Part shown: in pieces, positions 1,432-27,316 of the stretch | Layout of the letters: each line of letters opens with the position of its first letter | Numbering within the stretch: position 1 is the stretch's first letter | Source: an uncultured Verrucomicrobiae bacterium | GTDB lineage: Bacteria; Verrucomicrobiota; Verrucomicrobiia; Limisphaerales; UBA11358 | NCBI GenBank assembly: GCA_963835625.1 | Contig: CAWIGO010000002.1 | Coordinates: 8,116-72,115 of the forward strand | Length of the DNA stretch: 64,000 nucleotides | Direction: 5' to 3' | The notes under the pieces: model-generated | Databases searched by the model: none | What the model was told of the DNA's origin: nothing | Seen by the model: the letters and a program-made list of their open reading frames with translations, nothing else | Position numbers and translations under genes: made by a program

Positions 1432-2979
1432 ATGCCTAAACGGACGGACATTCATTCAGTGCTCATCATCGGCGCCGGACCGATCATCATCGGGCAGGCG
1501 TGCGAGTTCGATTATTCCGGCACGCAGGCTTGCAAGGCGCTCAAAGAGGAAGGCTATCGCGTCGTTCTCGTCAACTCCAACCCGGCCACCATCATGACCG
1601 ACCCGGAGTTCGCCGACCGCACCTACATCGAGCCGATTACACCCGAGTGCGTCGAGAAAATCATCGTGCGCGAATTGGAAGAGATGAAACGGATGGGCGT
1701 GCCTGTCGGCCAATCCGCAATCCGCAATCCGCAATCCGCAATTCCACATAAACTCGTTTTGCTCCCGACGCTCGGCGGCCAGACGGCGCTGAACACGGCG
1801 ATGGCCCTCTACCGCAGCGGCGTGCTGGATAAATACGGCGTCGAGATGATTGGCGCGAATGACAAAGCCATCGAACGCGGCGAAGACCGGCAGGTTTTCA
1901 AAGACCTTATGCTCTCCATCGGCCTCGACGTTCCGATTTCCGGCACCGCGCATAACATAGAGGAAGCCCGCGCTGTGACGGACAAGATTGGACGATTTCC
2001 TGTCATCATTCGTCCGGCGTTCACGCTGGGCGGCACCGGTGGCGGCATCGCCTATAACCGCGATGAATTCGACGAACTCGCCAGGCGCGGCATGGAGCTT
2101 TCGCCCGTCAACGAAATCCTCATCGAAGAATCGCTGCTCGGCTGGAAGGAATATGAAATGGAGGTCATGCGCGACAAAGCCGACAACTGCGTCATCATCT
2201 GCTCCATCGAGAACTTCGACCCGATGGGCGTCCACACCGGCGATTCCATCACCGTCGCGCCCATCCAGACGCTGACGGACAAGGAATTCCAGATCATGCG
2301 CGACGCCAGCTTCGCGGTGATTCGCGCGGTGGGCGTCGAGACCGGCGGCTCCAACATCCAGTTTGCCGTCAACCCGGACAACGGCCGCATGGTCATCATC
2401 GAGATGAACCCGCGCGTCAGCCGCAGCTCCGCGCTGGCGTCCAAGGCAACGGGCTTTCCCATCGCAAAAATCGCCGCCAAACTCGCCGTTGGCTACCTGC
2501 TCGACGAACTCAAAAACGACATCACGCGCGAAACCCCGGCTAGCTTCGAGCCGAGCATTGATTACGTCGTCATCAAGATTCCGCGGTTTGCCTTCGAGAA
2601 ATTCGCGCAGGCCGACCCGACTCTGACAACCCAGATGAAAAGCGTGGGCGAAGCGATGGCGATTGGCCGCACGTTCAAGGAAAGCCTGCAAAAATGCCTG
2701 CGCTCGCTGGAGATTGGTCGCAGCGGTCTGGGCGGCGACGGCAAACCCTGGCGCATCGGCACGGAAGTCTATGGCGACCGCGACATCCTGCCGAAGGACG
2801 TCATCAGCCGCAAATTGAGCGTACCGAATGCCGAACGGATTTTCTTCATCCGGCATGCATTGCGGGCAGGATTCACAATTGAGGAAATCTTCCAACTGAC
2901 CAAGATTGACAGATGGTTTTTAGTCCAAATAAAAGAAATCGTGGACTTCGAAGAAGAACTCGCCACGGCTAAACACTAA
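1432..2979 (+). CDS. carB: Carbamoyl-phosphate synthase large subunit, N-terminal half only (split CarB)
   Basis: CPSase ATP-grasp motifs ([43 protein letters not shown]). Stops at residue 515 just after the [11 protein letters not shown] motif of the oligomerisation domain. Confidence 0.9.
1712..1746. repeat. 7-bp-period tandem array (AATCCGC x4 plus one degenerate unit) inside carB
   Basis: Direct reading. Translates in frame as [11 protein letters not shown]. Confidence 0.9.
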
Positions 2980-2989
2980 AATGACCGCT

Positions 2990-3079
2990 TCATTCCGCAA
3001 TCAGCTTGGCCGCTGGTTTCTGACGCAGATCAAAGAAATCGTAGATTTTGAAGAAGAGTTGGCGGCAGCGAAGAATTAG
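2990..3079 (+). repeat. Diverged second copy of the carB-N 3' terminus (encodes [22 protein letters not shown]-stop)
   Basis: Protein-level match to the carB end ([22 protein letters not shown]-stop) with the stop codon at the equivalent position. Confidence 0.85.
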
Positions 3080-3083
3080 TCAG

Positions 3084-3134
3084 GTAGGGCGCGCCACTCC
3101 GTGCGCGCCGGTGGGGCGAGCGTCCTCGCGAGCC
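3084..3134. repeat. REP-like pair: GTAGGG head plus hairpin, followed by a GTGGGG unit
   Basis: GTAGGGCGCGCCACTCCGTGCGCGCC followed by GGTGGGGCGAGCGTCCTCGCGAGCC. Confidence 0.6.
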
Positions 3135-3221
3135 GTAACTAAAATTAGGAAACTTGAAGTCACAAACTGTGACCTCAAAGGTAGTCGCAACCTGTGACCA
3201 CCTCTCAGAGAAAGGGAAAAA

Positions 3222-3777
3222 ATGAATGGGCAAATGGCGGTGGTTCCGATGGAACGAATTGAAAGGGCAATCTTCTCCATTCGCGGCGAAAAGGTGATGC
3301 TGGACAGCGATCTGGCTGAACTTTATGGGGTAGAAACGAAGGCCTTGAATCAGGCCGTCAAACGCAATGCCAATCGCTTTCCAGAAGACTTCATGTTCCA
3401 ACTCACTGCAGGTGAGGTCTTTAAGCTGAACCGGTCACAAATTGTGACCGGTTCCCAGAAGCACCGCGATCCACGTTTTCCGCCTTACGCCTTCACCGAA
3501 CATGGGGCATTGATGCTGGCTAACGTGTTGAACAGCGAGCGGGCGGCGCAAACCAGCGTTCAGGTGGTGCGTGCGTTCGTGCGGCTGACGGCAAATGCTG
3601 GCTTCCAATGCCGAATTGGCGCGGAAACTCGCGGCGGTTGAAAATAAATACGACCGACAGTTCAAAGTTGTCTTTGACGCCATCCGACAGTTAATGTCTC
3701 CACCGGAAACCAAGTGGCGCGAAATCGGATTTCATGTGAAATATGACGACGACAAGCCAAAATCAAAGAAGCGATAG
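3222..3777 (+). pseudogene. ORF6N (KilA-N-like) domain protein, frameshifted near 3590-3600
   Basis: ORFs 3222..3641 and 3595..3777 together rebuild a typical ORF6N protein (IRGEKVMLDSDLAELYGVETKALNQAVKRNANRFPEDFMFQLT ... [33 protein letters not shown]). Confidence 0.8.
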
Positions 3778-3782
3778 TGACG

Positions 3783-3810
3783 CTCAACCCTCAACCATGA
3801 ACTCTCAACC
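3783..3810. repeat. 7-bp-period tandem array (CTCAACC units)
   Basis: ctcaacc ctcaacc atgaact ctcaacc, read directly. Confidence 0.7.
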
Positions 3811-3814
3811 GACT

Positions 3815-3880
3815 TCGTTTCTGGTGCAGGTTAAAGAGATTGTGGATTTTGAGGAAGAACTGGCGGGGGCGACGAAATGA
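3815..3880 (+). repeat. Diverged third copy of the carB-N 3' terminus (encodes [21 protein letters not shown]-stop)
   Basis: Protein-level match to the carB end with the stop at the equivalent position. Confidence 0.8.
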
Positions 3881-3917
3881 AATAATCCGGCAAAACTGCA
3901 ATCTGAAAGGTAAAGCT

Positions 3918-5069
3918 ATGACTACGGATAACTATATTATGATATTCCTCGTAGCAACCTTGTTCGTCTTCGGGACATTCGCGTTGCAAATGTTTTTCAG
4001 ATGGCAGCGAGAAACGAATAAAGACCGGCACGCGGAGGAACAAGCAAGTCGAGAGCAGATGGCCGTTTTTCAGAAAATGCAACAAGAGGCTTCGGAAAGG
4101 CAATCCGCGCATTTGGCTCAAATTTTGCACAGCACGTTGAAATCACAAGAGGACCTTCAGCGTAAAGTCACAAGCCAAGAACCACGCGAAGACGCGGGCT
4201 TAAACGCAGGTGGCTACATAATTTTCGACATACCCGAAGCGAAAAAAAGCATGTTTCACGACTTACTCAAAGGTTTCGAGGATTATGCAAAACTGAGGGG
4301 ATACGTAATAAACTTTTCAATTGACAATTCTTTTTCAAACAAGGTCGCTTTCAAGTTCACATTGGATAGCAGTGGGATCGTCGTCTCGACAAAGCAGGTG
4401 CGCCAAGATTTTAAGGATTACATTGAAAAGATTCAGAGGGGAGATTCCTTGGATGATTTGCCTGTGGTTTTATCGCAAGAAGAACACGCCACCTTACTTG
4501 CTTGCATGAAAACACGGATCAACTTCTTACAGCACAATTACAACATGGAGAAGACTGAAAAGGAGTTTTATCGTCGGTTGGTAAGCGAACTACCAAAACT
4601 TGGGTTTGGAATTGCACCTCTGCAAAACTTTTTTTTGCAAGCGGGCAATTCAAACCAGGCATCCAGCTACCATGCTCTGAATTCGCCCCAAGCCGCTGTA
4701 GGGGTGGGAAACCGCCTAATTGGCAATACGATTGACCAAAGCATTTACATTGCAGATTCGTTCAACGGAAGAACTGAACAGGTTCATGCAGTGTCGGATT
4801 TATGGCTAAAGCTTTGCGATGAATGTAAAAAGCTGCCTGAAGGTAGCCCGGAACACAAAGAATGTTCAAAAGCTATAGATAACCTGCGTAAGGTTGAAAA
4901 CGAGATGAGGGAAGGCGAGCCTCCTGAGCCCAATCGAATTCACAAATGGCTTGAACAGACCAAATACGCGCTTAAAGCGTTCGGGTTGACTAAGGAAATA
5001 ATTGATGCTGGGCGAAAACTTGAAGAAGCGTTTCATCTTTCGGATTGGATCGCGCCCCTCATTTCCTGA
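3918..5069 (+). CDS. Hypothetical protein: N-terminal TM helix, charged coiled-coil segment, unknown C-terminal domain
   Basis: Long ORF in a visibly AT-richer stretch. ATG 3918 is preceded by aaagg. No recognisable motif. Confidence 0.6.
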   Translation: MTTDNYIMIFLVATLFVFGTFALQMFFRWQRETNKDRHAEEQASREQMAVFQKMQQEASERQSAHLAQILHSTLKSQEDLQRKVTSQEPREDAGLNAGGYIIFDIPEAKKSMFHDLLKGFEDYAKLRGYVINFSIDNSFSNKVAFKFTLDSSGIVVSTKQVRQDFKDYIEKIQRGDSLDDLPVVLSQEEHATLLACMKTRINFLQHNYNMEKTEKEFYRRLVSELPKLGFGIAPLQNFFLQAGNSNQASSYHALNSPQAAVGVGNRLIGNTIDQSIYIADSFNGRTEQVHAVSDLWLKLCDECKKLPEGSPEHKECSKAIDNLRKVENEMREGEPPEPNRIHKWLEQTKYALKAFGLTKEIIDAGRKLEEAFHLSDWIAPLIS

Positions 5070-7934: not shown

Positions 7935-8657
7935 TTACTTCATCGCCACATACACGCGATGCACATCGTCGTGATCGTCAAGGGCGTTGAGGAAGTCCAC
8001 GACTTGTTTGCGATTGGCTGCGCTGATTTCGGGGAAATTCTTGGCGATGTAACGAATTTCAGCGGCGATGACGTTCCAACCGGCGGCCTTCAACGCCTTG
8101 GAAACGTGGTCGAGGTCTTTGATCTCGGTCAAAAACCGCGCGCCCTTCTGTCCGGCGGGAACTTCGTCGGATTCAAGCGGTTCGATTTCCTGCGCACCAG
8201 CTTCAATGGCATCGCCTTCGGCGTCGCGGTTGGCGTCGGTGTGCGTGGCTTCGACGACCCCGAGATGATTGAAGAAAAATGCGACGCTGCCCGGCTGGCC
8301 GAGTGAGCCGGCCTTGAACAAATTGCGGATTTCCGGCGCAGTGCGGTTGCGACTATCGGTGAGACACTCAACAATGACCGGCACCTTGTGCGGCGCGAAC
8401 CCTTCGTAGGTGACCAATTCGTAATTGACCTTTTCCGTGTCGAGTCCGGCGCCCTTCCTGATGGCACGTTCGATGGTGTCGCGGTAAACGGAGGCTTTCT
8501 TGGCTTTTTCGACGGCGGCGAAGAGGCGCGGATTGAGGTCGGGATCAGGTCCGCCGAGTTTGGCCGCGACCATGATTTCGCGGGCCAGCTTGACGACCAT
8601 CTGGCCTTTTTTCTGCGCGTTGATTTCGCGTCCGGATTGTTTCCATTGTGCGCCCAT
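7935..8657 (-). CDS. YebC/PmpR family transcriptional regulator
   Basis: 240 aa. N-terminus MGAQWKQSGREINAQKKGQMVVKLAREI..AAKLGGPDPDLNPRL is typical of YebC. Confidence 0.9.
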   Translation of the reverse strand: MGAQWKQSGREINAQKKGQMVVKLAREIMVAAKLGGPDPDLNPRLFAAVEKAKKASVYRDTIERAIRKGAGLDTEKVNYELVTYEGFAPHKVPVIVECLTDSRNRTAPEIRNLFKAGSLGQPGSVAFFFNHLGVVEATHTDANRDAEGDAIEAGAQEIEPLESDEVPAGQKGARFLTEIKDLDHVSKALKAAGWNVIAAEIRYIAKNFPEISAANRKQVVDFLNALDDHDDVHRVYVAMK

Positions 8658-8726
8658 GGGTTTTGACCAGTGTGAAAAGACCGGCGCGCCGGTTCAATGT
8701 AAATTGCGTGCAAAATGGCGTCATTT

Positions 8727-8819
8727 GTGGTTTACTGCGCGCATTCTTAATTGGCCGTCATATGGATGGCATGAATTCATTGATGGAACAGCACAAGGCC
8801 AAGCTGACCCCCGGAATCT
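8727..8819 (+). repeat. Diverged copy of the lysS 5' region (upstream leader plus first 16 codons)
   Basis: The atggatggcatgaattcattgatggaacagcacaaggccaagctgacc segment aligns to lysS 10383-10430 (40/48 identical by hand count). The upstream gatttactgcg motif is shared. Confidence 0.85.
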
Positions 8820-10303
8820 CCAGGACGTGCGAGCGCACAATCGTCTGTCTGTTGTGCCTGCTGGCGGCAATTCATGTTTTTGTTTATTCCGCCGCCTTTC
8901 CTTTTTTCAACAACGTGGATGAGCAAATCCATCTCGACTTGGTGGTGAGATACTCGCAAGCCCGCCTTCCGCGCGCGTTGGACACGCCGTGTCCGGAAGC
9001 CATGCTTTATTTCGTGATTTATAACACTCCGGAATATCTATGGCCGCCGGACACCTACCCTGGCGGACGATTTCCCGCGCCGCCGTGGATCCAGCCGTTG
9101 AACAAGGTCATGCCCATGTTGCAATCGCGGATAGCCGCGTGGCAAAGCATGAAAAATTGTGAAACCTCGCAGCCGCCACTCTATTACACGCTGGCGGGTT
9201 TGTGGTGGCGCTTGGGAAAGGTATGCGGAATTCATGACGGCTTTTTGCTCTATTGGGTCCGCTTCCTGAATGTGTTTCTCGTTGCGGTACTCGTGTGGCT
9301 GGGTTTTTTGGCCGCACGGATGGTTTTTCCGGACAACCTGTTTTTGCGGCTCGGCGTGCCGACATTGATCGCGTTCATGCCGCAAACCGCGTTTTACTCG
9401 ATTCAAAATGACGTGCTTTCACCATTGTGTTTCGGCGCGGCATTCATCTGCCTGGTGAAATTGCAGCGTGCGGAGGTGCCGGATACCCGACTCGGAACCG
9501 CCACCGGGCTGGCGCTGGCGGCCACGTTCCTGACCAAAATCAGCAACCTGCCGTTGCTGGTCATCTCGGCTTTGGTCGTTCTGTTCAAAACGTGGCGACT
9601 ATTCCGGGCTGAACAATTGCGCACGGCGGCTCCGGCCTTGTTATCGCTCGCGATTTGCGCCGGATTACCGATGGTGCTTTGGCTCGCGTGGTGCAAAATC
9701 GTCTTTGGCGATTTCACCGGCACGTCGGCCAAAATCCAATTCCTCGGCTGGACGCACAAACCGTTCGGCGAATGGTGGCACCACCCGATTTTCACGCCAC
9801 ATGGGTTGTGGACATTTGTTTCGGGACTCATGGCGACGTTGTGGCAGGGCGAGTTTTTCTGGCATCGCATGCCACTGGCTTGGCCTGCCATTGACACCGT
9901 TTACACGATTTCATCAATCGGCTTCATCGGGGTGGCCTTGGTCGCTTTGCTGCCGCGATTCACGGTTGTGACCCAACTACAGCGTCAGGCGCTTTGGCTT
10001 GGCTTCTGGTGTCTCATCGCGGCAGTCGCATTTCTCGGATTTCTGTCCCTCATTTACAATTTTCACGATTGCCTTTATCCATCGCAAGCGCATCCGTATT
10101 TCACTTCAGGACGGCTGATGCTTGGCGCACTGATTCCATTTCTGCTGCTGTTCGTGTATGGACTAGACCGGACATTAAGTTGTACGAAACGCCATTGGCC
10201 GCGGTGGCTGGCGTTGGGGGGATTTGTCCTGTTCATGCTGGTTTCGGAGATTGCCATAGACTGGCGGATTTTCCCGAATCCCTACAACTGGTTTCACATG
10301 TGA
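8762..10303 (+). CDS. Polytopic membrane protein, GT-C (ArnT/PMT-like) glycosyltransferase fold candidate, with a lysS-derived N-terminus
   Basis: About 12 predicted TM segments, with a DE..H motif in the first loop (NNVDEQIHLD). The first 16 codons, MDGMNSLMEQHKAKLT, mirror LysS MDDTNSLIEQRKAKLT. Confidence 0.65.
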   Translation: MDGMNSLMEQHKAKLTPGISRTCERTIVCLLCLLAAIHVFVYSAAFPFFNNVDEQIHLDLVVRYSQARLPRALDTPCPEAMLYFVIYNTPEYLWPPDTYPGGRFPAPPWIQPLNKVMPMLQSRIAAWQSMKNCETSQPPLYYTLAGLWWRLGKVCGIHDGFLLYWVRFLNVFLVAVLVWLGFLAARMVFPDNLFLRLGVPTLIAFMPQTAFYSIQNDVLSPLCFGAAFICLVKLQRAEVPDTRLGTATGLALAATFLTKISNLPLLVISALVVLFKTWRLFRAEQLRTAAPALLSLAICAGLPMVLWLAWCKIVFGDFTGTSAKIQFLGWTHKPFGEWWHHPIFTPHGLWTFVSGLMATLWQGEFFWHRMPLAWPAIDTVYTISSIGFIGVALVALLPRFTVVTQLQRQALWLGFWCLIAAVAFLGFLSLIYNFHDCLYPSQAHPYFTSGRLMLGALIPFLLLFVYGLDRTLSCTKRHWPRWLALGGFVLFMLVSEIAIDWRIFPNPYNWFHM

Positions 10304-10382
10304 TGCGGAACGCCATGCTGCGCCGCATCTTTTGCGTGCGAAGCGAGTTCCGGTGTGATTTACTGCGTGGACACCAATCGGT

Positions 10383-11831
10383 ATGGACGACACGAATTCA
10401 TTGATCGAACAACGCAAGGCCAAGCTGACCGCGTTGCGCGCCAAGGGCATTGACCCGTTCAAAAATAAATTCACGCCCGGCGAAACCTGCGAGCATGCGC
10501 GCGACCATTACGCCGAAGGCCGTGAAGTCGCCATTGCCGGTCGCATTACCGCGCACCGCGAGATGGGCAAAAGCATGTTCATTGACGTGCGCGACCAGAG
10601 CGGACGCATCCAGGCTTACGCGCAGAAAAATGTCCTCGGCGACGAGCAATTCGACATCTTCCGGCATCTCGACCTCGGTGATTTCATCGGCGCACGTGGA
10701 CATTTGTTCACAACCAAAACCGGTGAAATTTCCATCAAGCTCGCCAGCTTCACGATTCTGGCCAAGGCGTTGCGTCCGCCACCGGCGAAATGGTATGGAC
10801 TTGAAGACACGGAAATCCGTTACCGCCAACGTTATCTCGATTTGATGGCGAATCCAGAAGTGAAGGATGTTTTTTTCAAGCGCAGCCAAATCATCGCCGA
10901 GATCCGGAATTTTCTACATTCGCGCGGCTTTGTGGAAGTCGAGACACCGATGATGCAGGCGATTCCCGGCGGCGCGGCGGCGCAACCGTTCAAGACGCAT
11001 CACAACGCACTCGGCTGCGATTTTTATCTGCGCATTGCGCTGGAACTTTACCTTAAGCGTCTGCTTGTCGGCGGTGTGGACAAGGTTTTCGAGATTGGCC
11101 GCATCTTCCGCAACGAAGGTTTTTCGCGCAAACACAATCCCGAATTCACGATGTTGGAACTCTATCAGGCCTACGGCGATTACGAGAGCATGATGGAACT
11201 CATGCAAGGCATGGTCTGCCACGTTGCGCAAAAAGTTTTGGGCACGCTGAAAATCGAAACCAAAGACGCCGGGGGCAAGGTCACCAAAACAATTGATCTC
11301 ACGCCGAACTGGAAGCGTGTGAAATACAAGGATCTTGTGCGTGGAAAAGCGGGCGCGGATTGGTTTGACGTTTCACCAAAGGAACGGCACGAGCGCGCAA
11401 TCAAACTCGGCGCAGAGATTGCGAAGGACTACGAAGATTTTGAAGTCACACAGGCCGTATTCGAGAAGCTGATTGAACCAACACTTATCAATCCGACGTT
11501 TGTGACACACGCGCCGAAGGAATTGATTCCACTCGCCAAACTTTCACCCGACGATCCGACGACCGTCGAAGTTTTTGAGTGCTGCATCAACGGCCAGGAA
11601 ATCGCGCCTGCTTACACCGAACAGAACGACCCGATTGAGCAGCGCGAACGGCTGGAGCATCAGGCCGGCGGCGAGCAGCAAAAGCTGGATGAAGATTTTC
11701 TTGTCGCGCTCGAACATGGCATGCCTCCGGCGGGTGGCATGGGCGTGGGCATTGACCGTTTGTGCATGATGCTGCTCGGTCAGGAAAGCATCCGCGACGT
11801 GATTTTATTCCCGCAGTTGAAGCCAAAATAA
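10383..11831 (+). CDS. lysS: Lysine--tRNA ligase (class II)
   Basis: 482 aa with class II motifs ([33 protein letters not shown]). Confidence 0.95.
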   Translation: MDDTNSLIEQRKAKLTALRAKGIDPFKNKFTPGETCEHARDHYAEGREVAIAGRITAHREMGKSMFIDVRDQSGRIQAYAQKNVLGDEQFDIFRHLDLGDFIGARGHLFTTKTGEISIKLASFTILAKALRPPPAKWYGLEDTEIRYRQRYLDLMANPEVKDVFFKRSQIIAEIRNFLHSRGFVEVETPMMQAIPGGAAAQPFKTHHNALGCDFYLRIALELYLKRLLVGGVDKVFEIGRIFRNEGFSRKHNPEFTMLELYQAYGDYESMMELMQGMVCHVAQKVLGTLKIETKDAGGKVTKTIDLTPNWKRVKYKDLVRGKAGADWFDVSPKERHERAIKLGAEIAKDYEDFEVTQAVFEKLIEPTLINPTFVTHAPKELIPLAKLSPDDPTTVEVFECCINGQEIAPAYTEQNDPIEQRERLEHQAGGEQQKLDEDFLVALEHGMPPAGGMGVGIDRLCMMLLGQESIRDVILFPQLKPK

Positions 11832-11842
11832 GCTGTTAAATT

Positions 11843-12499
11843 TCAATCTTCCAACCATTCAATAATTTCGTGATCTCTACGCATATCAAATTTGGCGTAA
11901 TCTTCTCTTGAAGCATCGAATCCGTATTTCAAATGATACATAAGTGATTTTCCGTCTTCCGGATCATGTTTAAAACACACCTCATACCAAACTGTTTGCA
12001 AATTAAATTGCTGATGGAATACGTTCATAATTCCACGAATGAGTGCAAGCGCAGCTGTGATTTCTGAAAATTGAATCGTTGGCAAAGGGATTTCCTTCAT
12101 CTGCCTTAAGAGGTCGTTGTGCGCTATTTTCTCGTCACGCCAAGTTTTGACGGCTTTCATTTTCCCTTTGAGTGCTAAAATCTGTTGTGACACCTGACTT
12201 TGCAGACTTGCATCTTTAATTTCTAACACGAGATTATCAAACGACAGATTTTCTTTGACGATTGATTTAACTTTTGTTTTAGGTGGGTCTGTCAGCCTAG
12301 CGATGGAAAGAAGAATATCAAACAGCATTAAATTCCAGAGGTAGCCGAAAAATACTGGCGCTGTTTCATTCAACAATTTCACCTTCCTATCGCTGCCAAA
12401 AACCTGTTTGAAGTGTTTCCACTTGTAGTGCAATCGCACCACTTCAGCGTCAATGGCTTTGATCTTATTTTTAAGTGTGTCTGGCATATTGGCGGCCAC
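11843..12499 (-). CDS. HEPN-domain protein, AbiU2-like
   Basis: 218 aa, helical, with an R-x5-H motif (WRDEKIAHND). AT-rich. Overlaps the upstream GIY-YIG gene by 29 nt. Confidence 0.55.
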   Translation of the reverse strand: MAANMPDTLKNKIKAIDAEVVRLHYKWKHFKQVFGSDRKVKLLNETAPVFFGYLWNLMLFDILLSIARLTDPPKTKVKSIVKENLSFDNLVLEIKDASLQSQVSQQILALKGKMKAVKTWRDEKIAHNDLLRQMKEIPLPTIQFSEITAALALIRGIMNVFHQQFNLQTVWYEVCFKHDPEDGKSLMYHLKYGFDASREDYAKFDMRRDHEIIEWLED

Positions 12500-13310
12500 G
12501 TTTTAGAGTTACGCCCAAACGTCGTAGGCGACTCGATATGCCATGATGGTCTATGTTAAACAACCGCCCGATTTCGCGGCACGATTTGCCTTCTGAATGT
12601 AATTTTAGACAGGCCTGATCCATTTCTTCTGCACTATTAAAACCTAAAGATTTTCTGTTAAATTTTTCAAAATAGATTTTTCGAAGCCCTGCGGTTCTCG
12701 ATGGTAACTTTCTAATTTTATCCAAAAGCTGAACCAGCGGGTTGTAAATTTCTGGACGTTTGAGGGCTGCTGTAAAACCAGCTATGCGCTTGGCTTCATT
12801 TTCCGGCGAATGCAACCATTTTTGCGCGTTCTTTCTCCATTCTGGATTTTTTGCATGACGTTGTTTCAGTGCTTCAGAAACTCGCTTGTGAGTGTCAGGC
12901 GTCCATACGCCTCTGCGATACCCACGAATTTTCTTCTTCTGTGATTCGGTCCATTTGTAACCGCGGGTTGATTCTGCTTTTGGCGCAGAATTGAAGTTTC
13001 TCGTGTAAGCATGGAAATGATCCATCCAGAATTGTTCCCGTTCATCTAACCGTTTGCTCTCGCCAACCTTTTCCAACAAAATAGCTGTGAAAGCTCCTTG
13101 GCCATATTTGTTCCATGCTCTTTGCAAATGTCTTGAGTGATGTCGTTTTGCTAGAAGCGCCCGTAAATGCTGGTTGAGCCGCTTCCGAACAATTTTCGAG
13201 CTGCCAACATAGATTCTGCCACTGGCATCGTGCCGGATGCCATAAACGCCACAACATTGGAAATCAATTGATAAGCGATTGTTGAATATGCTTTCAATTA
13301 TTCCGAGCAT
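12471..13310 (-). CDS. GIY-YIG homing-type endonuclease (I-TevI/Seg-like architecture with a C-terminal HTH)
   Basis: GVYGI...RIYVGSS, conserved R (KRLNQHLR), E (REQFWMDHF), and a C-terminal HTH (SCREIGRLFNIDHHGISSRLRRLG). Confidence 0.8.
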   Translation of the reverse strand: MLGIIESIFNNRLSIDFQCCGVYGIRHDASGRIYVGSSKIVRKRLNQHLRALLAKRHHSRHLQRAWNKYGQGAFTAILLEKVGESKRLDEREQFWMDHFHAYTRNFNSAPKAESTRGYKWTESQKKKIRGYRRGVWTPDTHKRVSEALKQRHAKNPEWRKNAQKWLHSPENEAKRIAGFTAALKRPEIYNPLVQLLDKIRKLPSRTAGLRKIYFEKFNRKSLGFNSAEEMDQACLKLHSEGKSCREIGRLFNIDHHGISSRLRRLGVTLKRGRQYARHT

Positions 13311-13323
13311 GGTAGAAGTTTAA

Positions 13324-13482
<159 letters not shown>

Positions 13483-13556
13483 TGTAGGACAGGCATCTTG
13501 CCTGTCTCCATTATTTGAAATATGAAGTTAGAGACAGGCTGGAAGCCTGTTCTACA
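13483..13556. repeat. REPIN (GTAGGACAGGC-hairpin and inverted GTAGAACAGGC-hairpin)
   Basis: TGTAGGACAGGCATCTTGCCTGTCTC ... GAGACAGGCTGGAAGCCTGTTCTACA. Confidence 0.8.
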
Positions 13557-13562
13557 TACCGG

Positions 13563-14147
13563 TTACAACCACGACTTCAATCGTTCGCGCAAAATCTGCC
13601 GGGCGCGATACAATCGAGATTCAACCGCTTTCGGCGTTGTCTCAAGAATCGCCGCGGCTTCAGCGACGCTGCATTCCTCCCATTCGCACAACACAATCGC
13701 TTCGCGCAAATCCTCCGGCAATTTGCTGACCGCAATCCGAACGGCTTTGGCGCGTTCAGTGGCGAGGGCTTGTTCGTTGGGTGCCGGATCATTCGCCGGA
13801 AGCGCGCCGCCAAGCGTCTGTTCCGCTTCGCCGATTTCCGTTTCGAGCGAAATGTTGGGATGCCGCGCGCGCCAGCGGAAATGGTTGCGCGCCAGATTGG
13901 CGGCAATGGTGTAAAGCCAGGTGGAGAATTTTTCGTTCGTCCGAAAACTGGCGCGGGCGCGGAAGACGCGGACGAAGGTTTCCTGTGCGAGATCATTGGC
14001 GTCGTCCTCATTGCCGACCCTGCGGCAGAGAAAACGAAAAACCGGTGTGGCGTGGCGTTCCATCAGGTCGTTGAGCGCCGTGTCGTGGCCGGCGATTAAT
14101 CGCTCCATGTCGGCCCGGTCATGGGCATCAGTGTTGGTGATGCTCAT
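13563..14147 (-). CDS. ECF-type RNA polymerase sigma-70 family factor (CnrH-like position)
   Basis: Region 2 (DDANDLAQETFVRVF, STWLYTIAANLARN) and region 4 (REAIVLCEWEECSVAEAAAILETTPKAVESRLYRAR). Confidence 0.85.
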   Translation of the reverse strand: MSITNTDAHDRADMERLIAGHDTALNDLMERHATPVFRFLCRRVGNEDDANDLAQETFVRVFRARASFRTNEKFSTWLYTIAANLARNHFRWRARHPNISLETEIGEAEQTLGGALPANDPAPNEQALATERAKAVRIAVSKLPEDLREAIVLCEWEECSVAEAAAILETTPKAVESRLYRARQILRERLKSWL

Positions 14148-14622
14148 GGCTGGAGGCGGGAGACATGGATTTCTCGATTTCTTCATGGAAACCGAGGGTG
14201 AGGCGTTGCATTTCGGCGAGGTAACGGCGGCCTTGTTCCGGCGGCATGGCCTGGCTGACGGCGATGAAATGCCGGAGCATTTGCGCCTGGCATTGGGCGC
14301 GGAGTTCGCCGAGTTCGGTCAGTTTCTTTTGCGCGTCGGCGGTGACATTGGTGCCATTGGCCAGCACCGCTTGAACTTCGGATTTCTTCGCGGCGAGAAG
14401 CGCGCACATTTTTGCGCATTGCGGCATGTATCCCTCATGCAATTGCCGGATGCGCGCCATTTCGGCGGCATTCAGATGAAATTCATCATGCAACCAGCTC
14501 AAATCGTCCGCCGGATTCGCCATGCCCATCACACAAGCCCGCTGGCTGACAAAGTATGAGCCTGCGAAAACCGCCACGCCCAAGGCCAGTGCGCCCAACA
14601 CGATGATCAGCGAGCGGTTCAT
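14128..14622 (-). CDS. Periplasmic heavy-metal sensor, Spy/CpxP/CnrX-like, with a His-rich C-terminus
   Basis: N-terminal TM, all-helical body, C-terminal SHEHHQH. Sits between a small TM protein gene and the ECF sigma gene. Confidence 0.55.
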   Translation of the reverse strand: MNRSLIIVLGALALGVAVFAGSYFVSQRACVMGMANPADDLSWLHDEFHLNAAEMARIRQLHEGYMPQCAKMCALLAAKKSEVQAVLANGTNVTADAQKKLTELGELRAQCQAQMLRHFIAVSQAMPPEQGRRYLAEMQRLTLGFHEEIEKSMSPASSHEHHQH

Positions 14623-14625
14623 GCA

Positions 14626-14952
14626 TTAGCGCAGCGGATTGGGAGCGACAACGGCGAGATAACGCGCTTGTGAATCCTGTCGTGCGACCTGCGTGCCTTG
14701 ATATGTGCCCAGCAAAACGCCCGCGAGTGCCAAGGCAGCGACGGTGGCAAATGCGAGTCGCGGACGCAGCATCAAGGCCGCAAGCGCGTCCAGCCAGGAA
14801 ACGCCGCCAATGGATTTGGAGGATGCGGCTGCGTCTTCAATTCGTCGCCAGACACTCTCTTGGAAGCGCGGTGGCAACGCCGGAGCAATGCGCGATTCAC
14901 GCAGGAGCATGGTGAGCCTGGCGTCAGCCGGATTGATATTTTCTTTGTTCAT
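14626..14952 (-). CDS. Small single-pass membrane protein, anti-sigma (CnrY-like) candidate
   Basis: 108 aa from ATG 14952 with one TM (LAFATVAALALAGVLLG). First gene of the sigma operon. Confidence 0.45.
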   Translation of the reverse strand: MNKENINPADARLTMLLRESRIAPALPPRFQESVWRRIEDAAASSKSIGGVSWLDALAALMLRPRLAFATVAALALAGVLLGTYQGTQVARQDSQARYLAVVAPNPLR

Positions 14953-15032
14953 CGGTTCAGGGGAGGCGGAGATTTTGTCCGCCGCCCATAGTTTACTGGT
15001 TTTGTTGTGCCGGGACAACCCGGCTGATGGTT

Positions 15033-15377
15033 TTATGGCGTTGTGCTCTTTGCCGCTGTTGACATGTGGCATCCCGACATGTTGGCGGGATTGCCGGTGC
15101 AAGCTTGAATCGCCTTCGGGCTGGCGGTCATGTTACGACAGTTCATAGTCGGATTCACGTCGTTAGCCACAGTGGCGACGGTGATGGTCTGGTTAGCGGC
15201 GGTGCGCGGCGACAGGGCAATTCCCGTCGCTGGTGCGGCCTGAACCACGGTGGTGCCGGAAACGCTCTTGATTTGGTTGGCTGCGGCACGCGGGGAAAGC
15301 GCAATGTCGCTGGCGTTGATGGTTATCGCGGCCAGGACTGCCGCGCCGATGGTTGTGAGGAGTATTTGTGTTTTCAT
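15033..15377 (-). CDS. Secreted hypothetical protein with a duplicated ALSPR-AANQ motif
   Basis: Signal peptide MKTQILLTTIGAAVLAA and an internal repeat IALSPRAAANQ / IALSPRTAANQ. Confidence 0.5.
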   Translation of the reverse strand: MKTQILLTTIGAAVLAAITINASDIALSPRAAANQIKSVSGTTVVQAAPATGIALSPRTAANQTITVATVANDVNPTMNCRNMTASPKAIQACTGNPANMSGCHMSTAAKSTTP

Positions 15378-15659
15378 GTTTTGTTTTTCAATTTTTGGCG
15401 GCACTTCATTGTGCCGCCGAATGATTGTGCCTGTAATTACCCCGTAGCCTGGCGAACCCCGCAAATTTTTTCAAGCAGCCAGAACTGGAATAGATTCGCA
15501 GTCCATGGTTGAAGAGAAAGGGAGTCTGCGGAGCGGCTTAATTGAAAAGCAACCGGCGGACCAGGCATTTCTACCTAGCCGCCGGTTACACTCTGGCATC
15601 GGAGGAGGATGCTCAGAATTTGTAAACGAATAAGAATCGTGCGAAACGCCACACTGCTG

Positions 15660-25497: not shown

Positions 25498-26643
25498 ATG
25501 GCGAGGACCTTTCGTGTCGGCCTAATCGGCTACCGCTTCATGGGCAGGGCGCACTCGAATGCCTGGCGGCAGGCGCCACGCTTCTTCAATCTCAAGGCGA
25601 ATGTCGAGATGCACACCCTATGCGGGCGCGATGTGGTAGGGGTGCAAATGGCGCGCGCACAACTCGGCTGGCAGAACACCACGACGGATTGGCGCGAAAT
25701 TGTCGAATCGCCGCTGATTGACATCGTGGACATCGTCACGCCGACGAATTTTCACGCGGAAATGGCGATTGCCGCGGTGAAAAACGGCAAGCACGTTTTG
25801 TGCGAAAAGCCGCTGGCGCTGAATCTCAAACAGGCCGAGGCGATGTTCGCCGCCGCGCACAAGGCGAAGGTCGTCCACATGGTCTGCCACAATTACCGGC
25901 GCATTCCGGCAATCGCGCTGGCGAAGCGGATGATTGGCGAAGGCGCGCTGGGCCGGATTTTTCATTTTCACGCGCGTTACGCGCAGGACCGGCTGGCCGA
26001 CCCGGAATTTCCGCTGGACTGGCGTTTGCAAAAGGAGACCAGCGGCTGTGGCGTCCACAGCGACATCAATTCGCACGTCATTGATTTGGGGCGTTACCTC
26101 GTCGGCGAATTCAAGGAGGTCTGCGGGTTGCTGAACACGTTTATACCGGAACGTCCGCTGGCGGATGCGCTGGCCAAAGGCGCGCGCAGGATGGGCAAGG
26201 TCACCGTGCCGGACTCCGCAATGTTCATCGGGCGGATGGAAAATGGCGTGCTGGCGAACGTGGAAGCCACGCGCTACGCGCTCGGCCGCAAGAACCACAT
26301 CGCTGTCGAAATCAACGGAAGCAAAGGCTCGATCTATTTTGATTTTGAGGACATGAACCGGCTGAAATTTTACAATGGCGACGACCCGAAAGACCGGCGG
26401 GGTTTCCGCGACATTCTCGTGACGGAGCGCGACGGCGTGCAACCGTATGTCGGCCATTGGTGGCCGCCGGGACACGGCATCGGCTACGAACACACGTTCA
26501 TTCATGTGGTCGCCGATTTTGTGAACGCCTGCGTCGAGAGGAAACCGGCGCAACCAACTTTTGAGGATGGCTTGAAAAATCAGCGCGTGCTCGCCGCCGT
26601 CGAGGAATCGGCCAAAACCGGCAAATGGGTGAAATTGAAATGA
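25498..26643 (+). CDS. Gfo/Idh/MocA family oxidoreductase
   Basis: N-terminal Rossmann VGLIGYRFMGRAH and an EKP motif (VLCEKPLA). Confidence 0.85.
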   Translation: MARTFRVGLIGYRFMGRAHSNAWRQAPRFFNLKANVEMHTLCGRDVVGVQMARAQLGWQNTTTDWREIVESPLIDIVDIVTPTNFHAEMAIAAVKNGKHVLCEKPLALNLKQAEAMFAAAHKAKVVHMVCHNYRRIPAIALAKRMIGEGALGRIFHFHARYAQDRLADPEFPLDWRLQKETSGCGVHSDINSHVIDLGRYLVGEFKEVCGLLNTFIPERPLADALAKGARRMGKVTVPDSAMFIGRMENGVLANVEATRYALGRKNHIAVEINGSKGSIYFDFEDMNRLKFYNGDDPKDRRGFRDILVTERDGVQPYVGHWWPPGHGIGYEHTFIHVVADFVNACVERKPAQPTFEDGLKNQRVLAAVEESAKTGKWVKLK

Positions 26644-26698
26644 TTTGACCCGCCCGTCCGCGCGCCGGTGCGCATTGAAAAAGGCCGCTGGTCATTGT

Positions 26699-26735
26699 GC
26701 CCGCGTGGCGAAATTGGCAGACACGCCAGATTCAG
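26699..26735 (+). pseudogene. tRNA-Leu 5' half remnant (acceptor, D arm and anticodon stem up to CAG)
   Basis: GCCCGCGTGGCGAAATTGGCAGACACGCCAGATTCAG aligns to the first 37 nt of the intact tRNA at 27232, then the similarity stops. Confidence 0.85.
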
Positions 26736-26891
26736 TTTTTTACGTTCACCATTTTTAGAGGACATCTCCGCGTTTCAATGAGAGCGATAATGGCGGGGAT
26801 TTTGCAAAGTTATAAATAATTCTATACAGGCTGAAGAATGTGTTATAAACGGCATTAACCCATTAAAAACCATCGTGAATGAAACCAAAAT

Positions 26892-27092: not shown

Positions 27093-27176
27093 TGTTTGAG
27101 GCGGCGGCTCAGCCGGTGCTCAAGGCGGTGTGTCGAAGAATCGTCCAAAGCCGGCAAGTGGGTGAAATTGGAATGA
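27093..27176 (+). pseudogene. Diverged, frameshifted copy of the oxidoreductase 3' terminus
   Basis: Encodes LFEAAAQPVLKAV / (1-nt shift) / VEESSKAGKWVKLE-stop, against TFEDGLKNQRVLAAVEESAKTGKWVKLK-stop in the gene. Confidence 0.8.
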
Positions 27177-27231
27177 TTTGGCTTGCCCGTTCATGCGGTG
27201 GCGCGTATTGAAAGAAGCTGCCGGTCATCGT

Positions 27232-27316
27232 GCCCGCGTGGCGGAATTGGCAGACGCGCTAGATTCAGGTTCTAGTGGGTAACACCATACAGGTTCAAAT
27301 CCTGTCGCGGGCACCA
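27232..27316 (+). tRNA. tRNA-Leu (anticodon CAG), type II with a long variable arm and encoded CCA
   Basis: Manual fold: acceptor GCCCGCG/CGCGGGC, anticodon stem CTAGA/TCTAG with loop TTCAGGT, T arm ACAGG-TTCAAAT-CCTGT. Confidence 0.9.

Follow-up and report, generated by a model that had tools for sequence, protein, structure and literature searches.

A chimeric membrane-protein gene at the 5′ end of lysS in an uncultured Verrucomicrobiae bacterium, probably a product of illegitimate recombination

We analysed a 64,000-nucleotide (nt) stretch of DNA from an uncultured Verrucomicrobiae bacterium (contig CAWIGO010000002.1; the whole stretch is called the window hereafter) and in particular its lysS gene, which encodes lysyl-tRNA synthetase. 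Between yebC and lysS lies a gene for a membrane protein of the DUF2142 type, the open reading frame (ORF) of which begins with a second copy of the lysS start. The features of the locus, numbered from the first nucleotide of the window, are as follows.

7935-8657, minus strand: yebC (TACO1/YebC family; PF01709, PF20772), the left flank of the ancestral yebC-lysS pair.
8658-8761, plus strand: the resident yebC-lysS intergenic region of 104 nt, collinear with the spacers of relatives that have an empty site; it carries a leader/promoter motif at about 8706-8761 and now lies upstream of the chimeric gene.
8762-8809, plus strand: copy 1, which comprises the resident lysS start codon and first 16 codons and now encodes the N-terminal peptide MDGMNSLMEQHKAKLT of the membrane protein; 42/48 nt identical to the current lysS start.
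8762-10303, plus strand: the complete chimeric ORF of 513 amino acids (aa), also modelled with AlphaFold (AF2).
8804-8812, plus strand: the putative illegitimate in-frame joint CTGACC/CCC, from lysS codon 16 to DUF2142 codon ~9-10, placed by comparison with orthologue DNA.
8810-10303, plus strand: the body of the DUF2142 / GT-C-like membrane protein, residues 17-513 (orthologue identity, PF09913, fold matches).
10304-10382, plus strand: the DUF2142-lysS intergenic region of 79 nt, read as imported, which follows the conserved gene end and contains another lysS leader allele, distinct from that of copy 1 (motif at about 10332-10369).
10383-11831, plus strand: lysS (class II lysyl-tRNA synthetase; TIGR00499, PF00152, PF01336), the first 16 codons of which are copy 2.

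A repeat search of the window recovered the duplicated lysS start as repeat family D7, in which 8761-8809 matches 10382-10430 at 43/49 nt (88%) with a spacing of 1621 nt; by a binomial estimate the chance expectation for such a pair in the window is <1e-6. The initial annotation had located this repeat correctly and gave it as 40/48 nt, a count that we revise to 42/48 when the first 48 nt of the 513-aa ORF and of lysS are compared from the ATG. The encoded peptides are MDGMNSLMEQHKAKLT (copy 1, 8762-8809) and MDDTNSLIEQRKAKLT (copy 2, 10383-10430), and the similarity between the copies ends exactly after codon 16 (CTGACC), beyond which the ORF aligns with DUF2142 orthologues. Part of the lysS leader had also been described as duplicated, and it can be seen that the blocks TTGCGTGC and GTG(G/A)TTTACTGCG are indeed present in both copies, at 8706-8741 and 10332-10369. 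The two leaders are about 59% identical overall, with a 7-nt length difference; since the blocks are common to lysS leaders throughout the clade, their likeness is homology and not chance. The leader motif is not a general repeat of the window, where only the two lysS-type copies match it. Nothing significant came out of a terminator scan or of RNA folding applied to the two leaders and to the hairpin that follows the DUF2142 stop (z -0.2 to -0.8), and an Rfam scan of 8500-10500 returned no element, only a chance match to a long non-coding RNA.

The loci of relatives were fetched via LysS and are labelled L001-L178. In all of the close relatives yebC (minus strand) is followed by a spacer of 103-104 nt and directly by lysS, and then by sig70 and an anti-sigma gene, with no insert at the lysS 5′ end. 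These empty sites are represented by five independent relatives or groups whose LysS shares 89-97% identity with that of the window, namely L170-L175 (97%; 11 contigs from several samples), L176-L178 (93%), L083 (92%) and L084 (89%). The claim of an insertion at the 5′ end of lysS, for which a comparison of the upstream region in related genomes had been proposed as the check, is therefore upheld. The three closest GTDB representative genomes were of little help here, as their LysS is only 75-79% identical and the conserved context is lacking, and an exact-sequence look-up of the window LysS and DUF2142 proteins found neither on record.

The relatives also give the polarity of the two copies. 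The window yebC is 96% identical at the amino-acid level to that of L083 and L084 and 96.3% identical at the nucleotide level to that of L170, while lysS is 97% (aa) and 91.7% (nt) identical to L170 with mismatches evenly spread along the gene. When the window was compared with L170 using blastn, three blocks were obtained, 7935-8809, 10381-11830 and 13347-15469, of which the first, from yebC through codon 16 of copy 1, is a single contiguous match of 92.7%. The window thus consists of a backbone like that of L170 into which two stretches have been inserted, and a repeated lysS end bounds each of them. The resident spacer matches that of L084 at 92/104 and that of L083 at 82/104 positions; its yebC-proximal half is nearly identical to L176 and is absent from copy 2. 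From this full-length collinearity with empty-site spacers we conclude that the lysS 5′ region originally resident here is the upstream copy, and that the copy now used by lysS probably arrived together with the DUF2142 insert. The initial annotation had the polarity reversed: what it took for a duplicated and diverged copy at the membrane-protein gene is the original, still beside yebC, and the region that it called authentic, after the cargo (about 10332-10382), is the one we read as imported.

Copy 1 differs from the lysS consensus at four positions, all of them amino-acid replacements (D3G, T4M, I8M and R11H), and its GAT and CAG codons are also found in L084. Two of the replacements create an extra in-frame ATG, at codons 4 and 8, nearer to the first transmembrane segment (TM1).

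We noted in addition that the 104-nt yebC-lysS spacer (window 8658-8761; L170 4898-5000; L176 4897-5000; L083 5897-6000; L084 5086-5189) has a constant length and a mosaic sequence among genomes with 89-97% identical LysS. Three kinds of leader occur: window copy 1, L083 and L084 share allele A, L170-175 have allele C, and L176 has a hybrid of the two (A/C). This mosaicism, as far as the sequences can tell, indicates frequent recombination in the spacer.

We compared the membrane protein with the best 119 of 2,528 database homologues, which are 62-74% identical to it and all come from Verrucomicrobiota/Limisphaerales metagenomes. The body of the protein, from residue ~17-20 to the end, is 60-74% identical to many Verrucomicrobiota orthologues, the nearest being only 74% identical. 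None of the 119 carries the lysS-derived peptide MDGMNSLMEQHKAKLT; orthologues start for example with MSNADSNLATGISGTRERTIVCLL or MQNGVNAADSNPPATFSESQERRIV (also given as MSNADSNLATGISGTRERTIV... or MQNGVNAADSNPPA...), and their homology with the window protein begins at PGISRTCERTIV. The LysS proteins of all relatives, on the other hand, begin with MDDTNSLIEQRKAKL, and the 16 N-terminal residues therefore came from lysS. Past codon 8 the next ATG, GTG or TTG is a TTG at codon 31, already inside TM1 (residues 21-45), so that the translation start must lie in the lysS-derived stretch. The two findings that had been named as able to overturn a chimeric N-terminus, orthologues sharing the peptide and a real start downstream of the duplicated segment, were thus looked for and neither is seen. 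The earlier proposal that the cargo borrows a lysS leader, start codon and first 16 codons holds for the chimeric start, with its unique peptide, and fails where it calls the borrowed piece a duplicate, because this is the resident original.

The 513-aa protein is polytopic, with about 10-11 hydrophobic segments. In the AF2 model (predicted local distance difference test, pLDDT, 80; predicted TM-score, pTM, 0.84) residues 1-17 form a low-confidence tail with a short helix at 2-13, followed by TM1. A Foldseek search of the PDB gave GT-C glycosyltransferases for every one of the 20 top-ranked matches (STT3, ArnT, DPY19, PMT, PimE, AftD, Emb), although the matches are modest (probability 0.89-1.0, E 2e-3 to 0.15, TM-score 0.25-0.43). 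An Asp-Glu pair (D53, E54; motif NNVDEQ) is invariant and stands directly after TM1. In the usual GT-C layout the N-terminus is cytoplasmic, and the position of the Asp-Glu pair matches that layout; the predicted polytopic fold and the conserved acidic motif, expected to lie in the first extracytoplasmic loop, are those that mark the GT-C fold. PF09913 (DUF2142) matches residues 47-426 with 28.3 bits, under the cut-off of 30.1 bits (E 1e-6), and is listed for the window protein and its orthologues in precomputed annotation; by these scores the protein would be a borderline or divergent PF09913 member. NCBIfam has no model that matches the DUF2142 protein. In an alignment of 34 DUF2142 family members all 87 invariant residues (87/87) are intact in the window protein, and since the gene is also in frame the fusion looks functional at the level of its sequence. 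All that has been reported of DUF2142 proteins is that they are polytopic in the membrane and are encoded in cell-wall polysaccharide loci (PMC9746298).

DUF2142 lies directly upstream of lysS as a native neighbour in L087, L093, L167 and L168, and L168, which carries one of the closest orthologues, has a DUF2142-lysS spacer of 81 nt. The gene ends with the conserved ...PYNWFHM and stop in the window and in all DUF2142-bearing relatives compared. In L082, L163-165 and L166 a yebC(-)-ABM-FeADH-DUF2142 block is found, with tandem DUF2142 copies and lysS nearby. The GC content of the window DUF2142 gene is 54.7%, against 54.0% for the window as a whole and 40-44% for the cassette at the lysS 3′ end (see below), and its divergence from orthologues is on trend with the divergence of YebC for the same genome pairs. 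On account of this typical GC, on-trend divergence and native synteny with yebC and lysS, DUF2142 is best described from its sequence as a clade-native gene and not distant foreign cargo, and the initial annotation of the membrane gene as foreign is not sustained. The spacer between DUF2142 and lysS matches the resident-type intergenic region at only 39/104 positions and every other leader allele at 56-64%, which makes the copy-2 leader an outlier to the 56-nt leader family of copy 1, L083, L084, L087 and L093.

A separate likeness was noticed between the native DUF2142 leader (GGCTTGTGATTTGCCGCGCGTGCTTTAATTTGACCGCGCA followed by ATG; L167 1640-1680, L163 3950-3990, L087 4050-4091) and the resident-type lysS leader (TTTGTGGTTTACTGCGCGCATTCTTAATTGGCCGTCAT followed by ATG; window 8722-8761). 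The two stand in the same register before the ATG and agree at ~25/41 positions by eye, which could be due to a shared promoter type or to an older exchange.

At the left joint the window reads AAG CTG ACC CCC GGA ATC TCC (joint k-mer AAGGCCAAGCTGACCCCCGGAATCTCCAGG), where lysS has AAG CTG (G/A)CC GCG and the orthologue DNA has AAT CTG GCC ACC GGT ATT TCC in L082 and AAT CCA GCC GCC GGA ATT TCC in L168; the orthologue sequences at the equivalent site are CTGGCCACC or CCAGCCGCC. The possible microhomology is GC-rich (CTGRCC) and amounts to 2-6 nt, or up to 8 of 9, as reckoned from distant orthologues and not from a donor. The right border of the insert merges into lysS without discontinuity, the first ~120 nt of which are ~90-100% conserved across lineages. 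The window LysS itself scores 554.5 bits with TIGR00499 (equivalog cut-off 427.6 bits) and also matches PF00152 and PF01336.

The lysS genes of L114 (715-2499), L115 (451-2313), L144 (647-2413) and L082 (12010-13518) carry ~240-400 nt extra near residues 292-329. This DNA appears as overlapping tblastn segments and could be an internal duplication, an insertion or a variable insertion domain.

The best explanation for the locus, and one that we hold to be probable, is recombination with DNA of a related lineage, of the homology-facilitated illegitimate type. The ancestor genome would have had yebC and lysS as divergent neighbours. In one event, DNA from a related Verrucomicrobiota lineage with DUF2142 directly upstream of lysS would have recombined with the resident lysS. 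Homologous exchange on the right would have taken place in the first ~50-120 nt of lysS, where conservation is very high. The left side would be an illegitimate, in-frame joint at the CTGRCC microhomology, linking resident lysS codon 16 to a DUF2142 gene that came in without its promoter, start and first ~9 codons. A single crossover with a circularised fragment would be an alternative route to the same product. Because the illegitimate joint would have fallen inside the anchor gene, the lysS start was duplicated rather than DNA deleted. The resident leader, start codon and 16 codons would have been left upstream as the only place from which transcription and translation of DUF2142 could plausibly start; the protein would gain a 16-residue cytoplasmic tail before TM1, and lysS would now be served by the imported DUF2142-lysS spacer with its own lysS leader motif. 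Both leaders may act as promoters, and the fusion protein may be made and active. It is from these comparisons that we infer the transfer from another lineage and the exact positions of the joint and the crossover.

Several observations weigh against this reading. No donor genome was found, and the joint with its microhomology is reconstructed from distant orthologues. Neither the sliding-window identity of lysS in ten relatives nor the mismatches per 100 nt in the 97% relatives showed a divergence step for the right-hand crossover, and a scan with the sigma-70 promoter consensus found no promoter. Vertical descent within the clade would likewise account for the divergence of DUF2142, and the mosaic spacer alleles among close relatives weaken the argument that the odd copy-2 leader is an import. 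Lastly, the window is probably a metagenome assembly.

A potential explanation of internal origin, which we consider unlikely, is that a tandem duplication (DUF2142 codon ~9 to lysS codon 16) in a yebC-ABM-FeADH-DUF2142-lysS ancestor made the joint, that a TTGCG microhomology deletion then removed ABM, FeADH and the first DUF2142, and that the empty sites arose later via the lysS-start repeats. Tandem DUF2142 arrays do exist, with three copies in L082, and the native GC and on-trend divergence of the gene would fit. The boundary between the yebC spacer and the lysS leader, AAATTGC/GTGC, which is common to the window and the empty-site genomes, moreover resembles, when set against the L082 sequence, a joint left by an earlier microhomology deletion that took out the ABM-to-DUF2142 block. 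However, loss of the insert would be required in at least five sampled lineages, including the relatives with 97% identical LysS, or else the duplication would have to be very old. The copy-2 leader, although in the native and functional position, would also have to diverge to ~60% while copy 1 kept 77-88% to L083/L084 and 63-66% to L087/L093. The window was searched for ABM, Fe-ADH, CorA, PMT_2 and a second DUF2142 as signs of local rearrangement, and none was found.

Two of the other explanations turn on the lysS 3′ end and on further duplicated gene ends in the window, among them a mirror-image insertion on the far side of lysS.

11843-13481, no single strand: context, the mirror-image 3′ insertion, with AbiU2 (11843-12499, minus), GIY-YIG (12471-13310, minus) and the displaced resident lysS tail (13343-13481); repeat D1, Pfam/NCBIfam matches.

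This insertion (region 11692-13481) is bounded by D1, a 139-nt, 94% repeat of the lysS tail. Its genes encode AbiU2 (HEPN) and a GIY-YIG protein, which TIGR01453 assigns to the group I intron endonucleases, and its GC is 40-44%. The displaced tail at 13343-13481 runs without a break into the sig70 flank known from L170 and L083, and the 3′ site is empty in all close relatives.

Short second lysS tails (~35-40 nt) were also seen in L087 (7842-7874), after a DUF433-like/PIN-like pair, and in L176 (8457-8496), after an ABC-F gene. Both start at nearly the same lysS nucleotide (..GA/CGTGAT..), a common boundary that may point to the lysS 3′ end as a hotspot or as the target of a site-specific process. 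At 1432-3873 of the window there is a gene for the N-terminal half of CarB (515 aa; 501 aa in L176), apparently a natural split, the last ~70 nt of which are repeated twice downstream, at 3003-3072 (70%) and 3804-3873 (60%). ORFs 3222-3641 and 3840-5069 lie between and after these copies in a layout like a displaced gene-end array. One more gene end is duplicated as a 140-nt direct repeat (83%; 26599-26738 and 27132-27271, the copies ~0.5 kb apart), at and just past the 3′ end of ORF 25498-26643, which reads in translation like a sugar-type oxidoreductase.

From the four duplicated gene ends in 64 kb and the near-identical tail boundaries in L087 and L176 it could be argued that the 5′ fusion is one output of a general, possibly enzyme-assisted process of the lineage that repeatedly inserts genes at the very ends of conserved genes together with a replacement end, and that the co-option was selected and not accidental. 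Were this so, taking over the promoter, start and first codons of an essential gene would be a selected design feature. We consider it very unlikely.

Slighter still are the chances of a dedicated mechanism by which mobile cassettes target essential-gene ends and carry a replacement end with them, of which the 5′ insert would be the counterpart of 3′ cassettes at lysS, carB and elsewhere. The four window loci with duplicated gene ends (repeats D1, D2, D3 and D7), the tail duplicated beside different cargo at almost the same boundary in L087 and L176, and the mirrored geometry of the two lysS insertions, in both of which lysS uses an imported end and its resident end has been pushed aside, all speak for it. 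However, the 5′ insert is a single ORF (DUF2142) in which no integrase, transposase, nuclease or recombinase domain was found, and its cargo is a clade-native neighbour of typical GC, unlike the AT-rich 3′ cargo. Its right 'arm' is the natural DUF2142-lysS spacer known in other genomes, and no second 5′ duplicate was present among 172 lysS-bearing loci (L001-L162 in a systematic scan; L167, L168 and L170-L177 by direct comparison). The lengths of the duplications vary (48, 37, 40 and 139 nt), against a fixed attachment site. The repeats around the insert, rather than those of a site-specific cassette or island with its recombinase, consist of a 48-nt gene start (88%) and a diverged leader (59%). 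The initial annotation had called the insert the 5′-end counterpart of the 3′-end cassettes and an unusual way of plugging genes into essential-gene signals; the first comes down to a mirrored geometry without a second example at the 172 loci, with no mobility gene and typical GC, and for the second we see no sign of a dedicated mechanism. Insertion driven by an integrase or a homing enzyme was likewise rejected, as the insert has no such gene.

The weakest alternative, mis-assembly of metagenome reads that joined a yebC-lysS strain to a DUF2142-lysS strain, gains something from the probable metagenomic source of the contig and from the presence of both arrangements in related populations, but is scarcely credible, because the joint between lysS codon 16 and DUF2142 shares at most 6-9 nt, far under assembler k-mer sizes, because a repeat-induced chimera would switch within the 48-nt repeat and not make a new in-frame joint, and because copy 1 has private substitutions; with just a few bases shared at the joint, an assembly chimera was rejected.

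We conclude that the locus, an in-frame fusion of the resident lysS 5′ end to a neighbouring GT-C-like gene that was probably re-acquired, is most likely a clean, ordinary scar of illegitimate recombination, a known outcome and not a new genetic element or system; it reveals no new mechanism and opens no long-standing question. On this reading it is a well-resolved natural example of illegitimate recombination, anchored in a conserved gene, that moves a gene between related genomes and gives it a new promoter, start codon and N-terminus while the essential anchor is undamaged. For annotators, the 'extra' lysS start is no pseudogene and the start of the membrane protein is genuinely chimeric, and duplicated gene ends in this genome are on their own no proof of a cassette system. 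Within this Verrucomicrobiota clade the stretch yebC-lysS-sig70 stands out as a hotspot of recombination.

Among known systems, the GT-C enzymes (STT3/PglB, ArnT, PMT, DPY19, Emb/Aft) resemble the window protein in having TM1 followed by a large loop with an invariant Asp-Glu. The likeness to solved GT-C enzymes is one of predicted fold, with weak fold matches and a Pfam score just below threshold. The cassette at the lysS 3′ end is like the 5′ insert in that the resident lysS end is pushed outward, the imported end is used and the site is empty in L083 and L170. It differs in its AT-rich, defence/homing-type cargo with a nuclease, and its displaced fragment is an unused stub.

The orphan ends of type VI secretion system (T6SS) effector-immunity, Rhs and contact-dependent inhibition (CDI) loci, which arise by sequential displacement (Kirchberger et al. 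2017, PMC5361080), offer a further parallel, since there too a module anchored in a conserved part displaces the resident end and leaves a partial duplicate. Those ends, however, are recurrent 3′ toxin tips with immunity genes, whereas here a single event affected the 5′ end of a housekeeping synthetase, and unlike the orphans the lysS fragment would have taken on a new role, providing the newcomer with its promoter, start and N-terminus.

Products of this kind are known to arise by homology-facilitated illegitimate recombination, a well-established route (PMC3240628; PMC5361080). Experiments in Acinetobacter, Streptococcus pneumoniae, Pseudomonas stutzeri and E. coli have demonstrated it (PMC3240628; references in PMC5361080), and among the studies that PMC5361080 cites for it are de Vries & Wackernagel 2002, Prudhomme 2002 and Meier & Wackernagel 2003. 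As expected of this route, one end of the window insert is seamless in lysS and there are no mobility genes; the other end may be a GC-rich joint of a few bases, as reconstructed from orthologues. Unlike its usual products, in the window the joint would lie inside the anchor gene, with 48 nt and the leader duplicated and none of the recipient deleted, and it is in frame, making a working-looking fusion.

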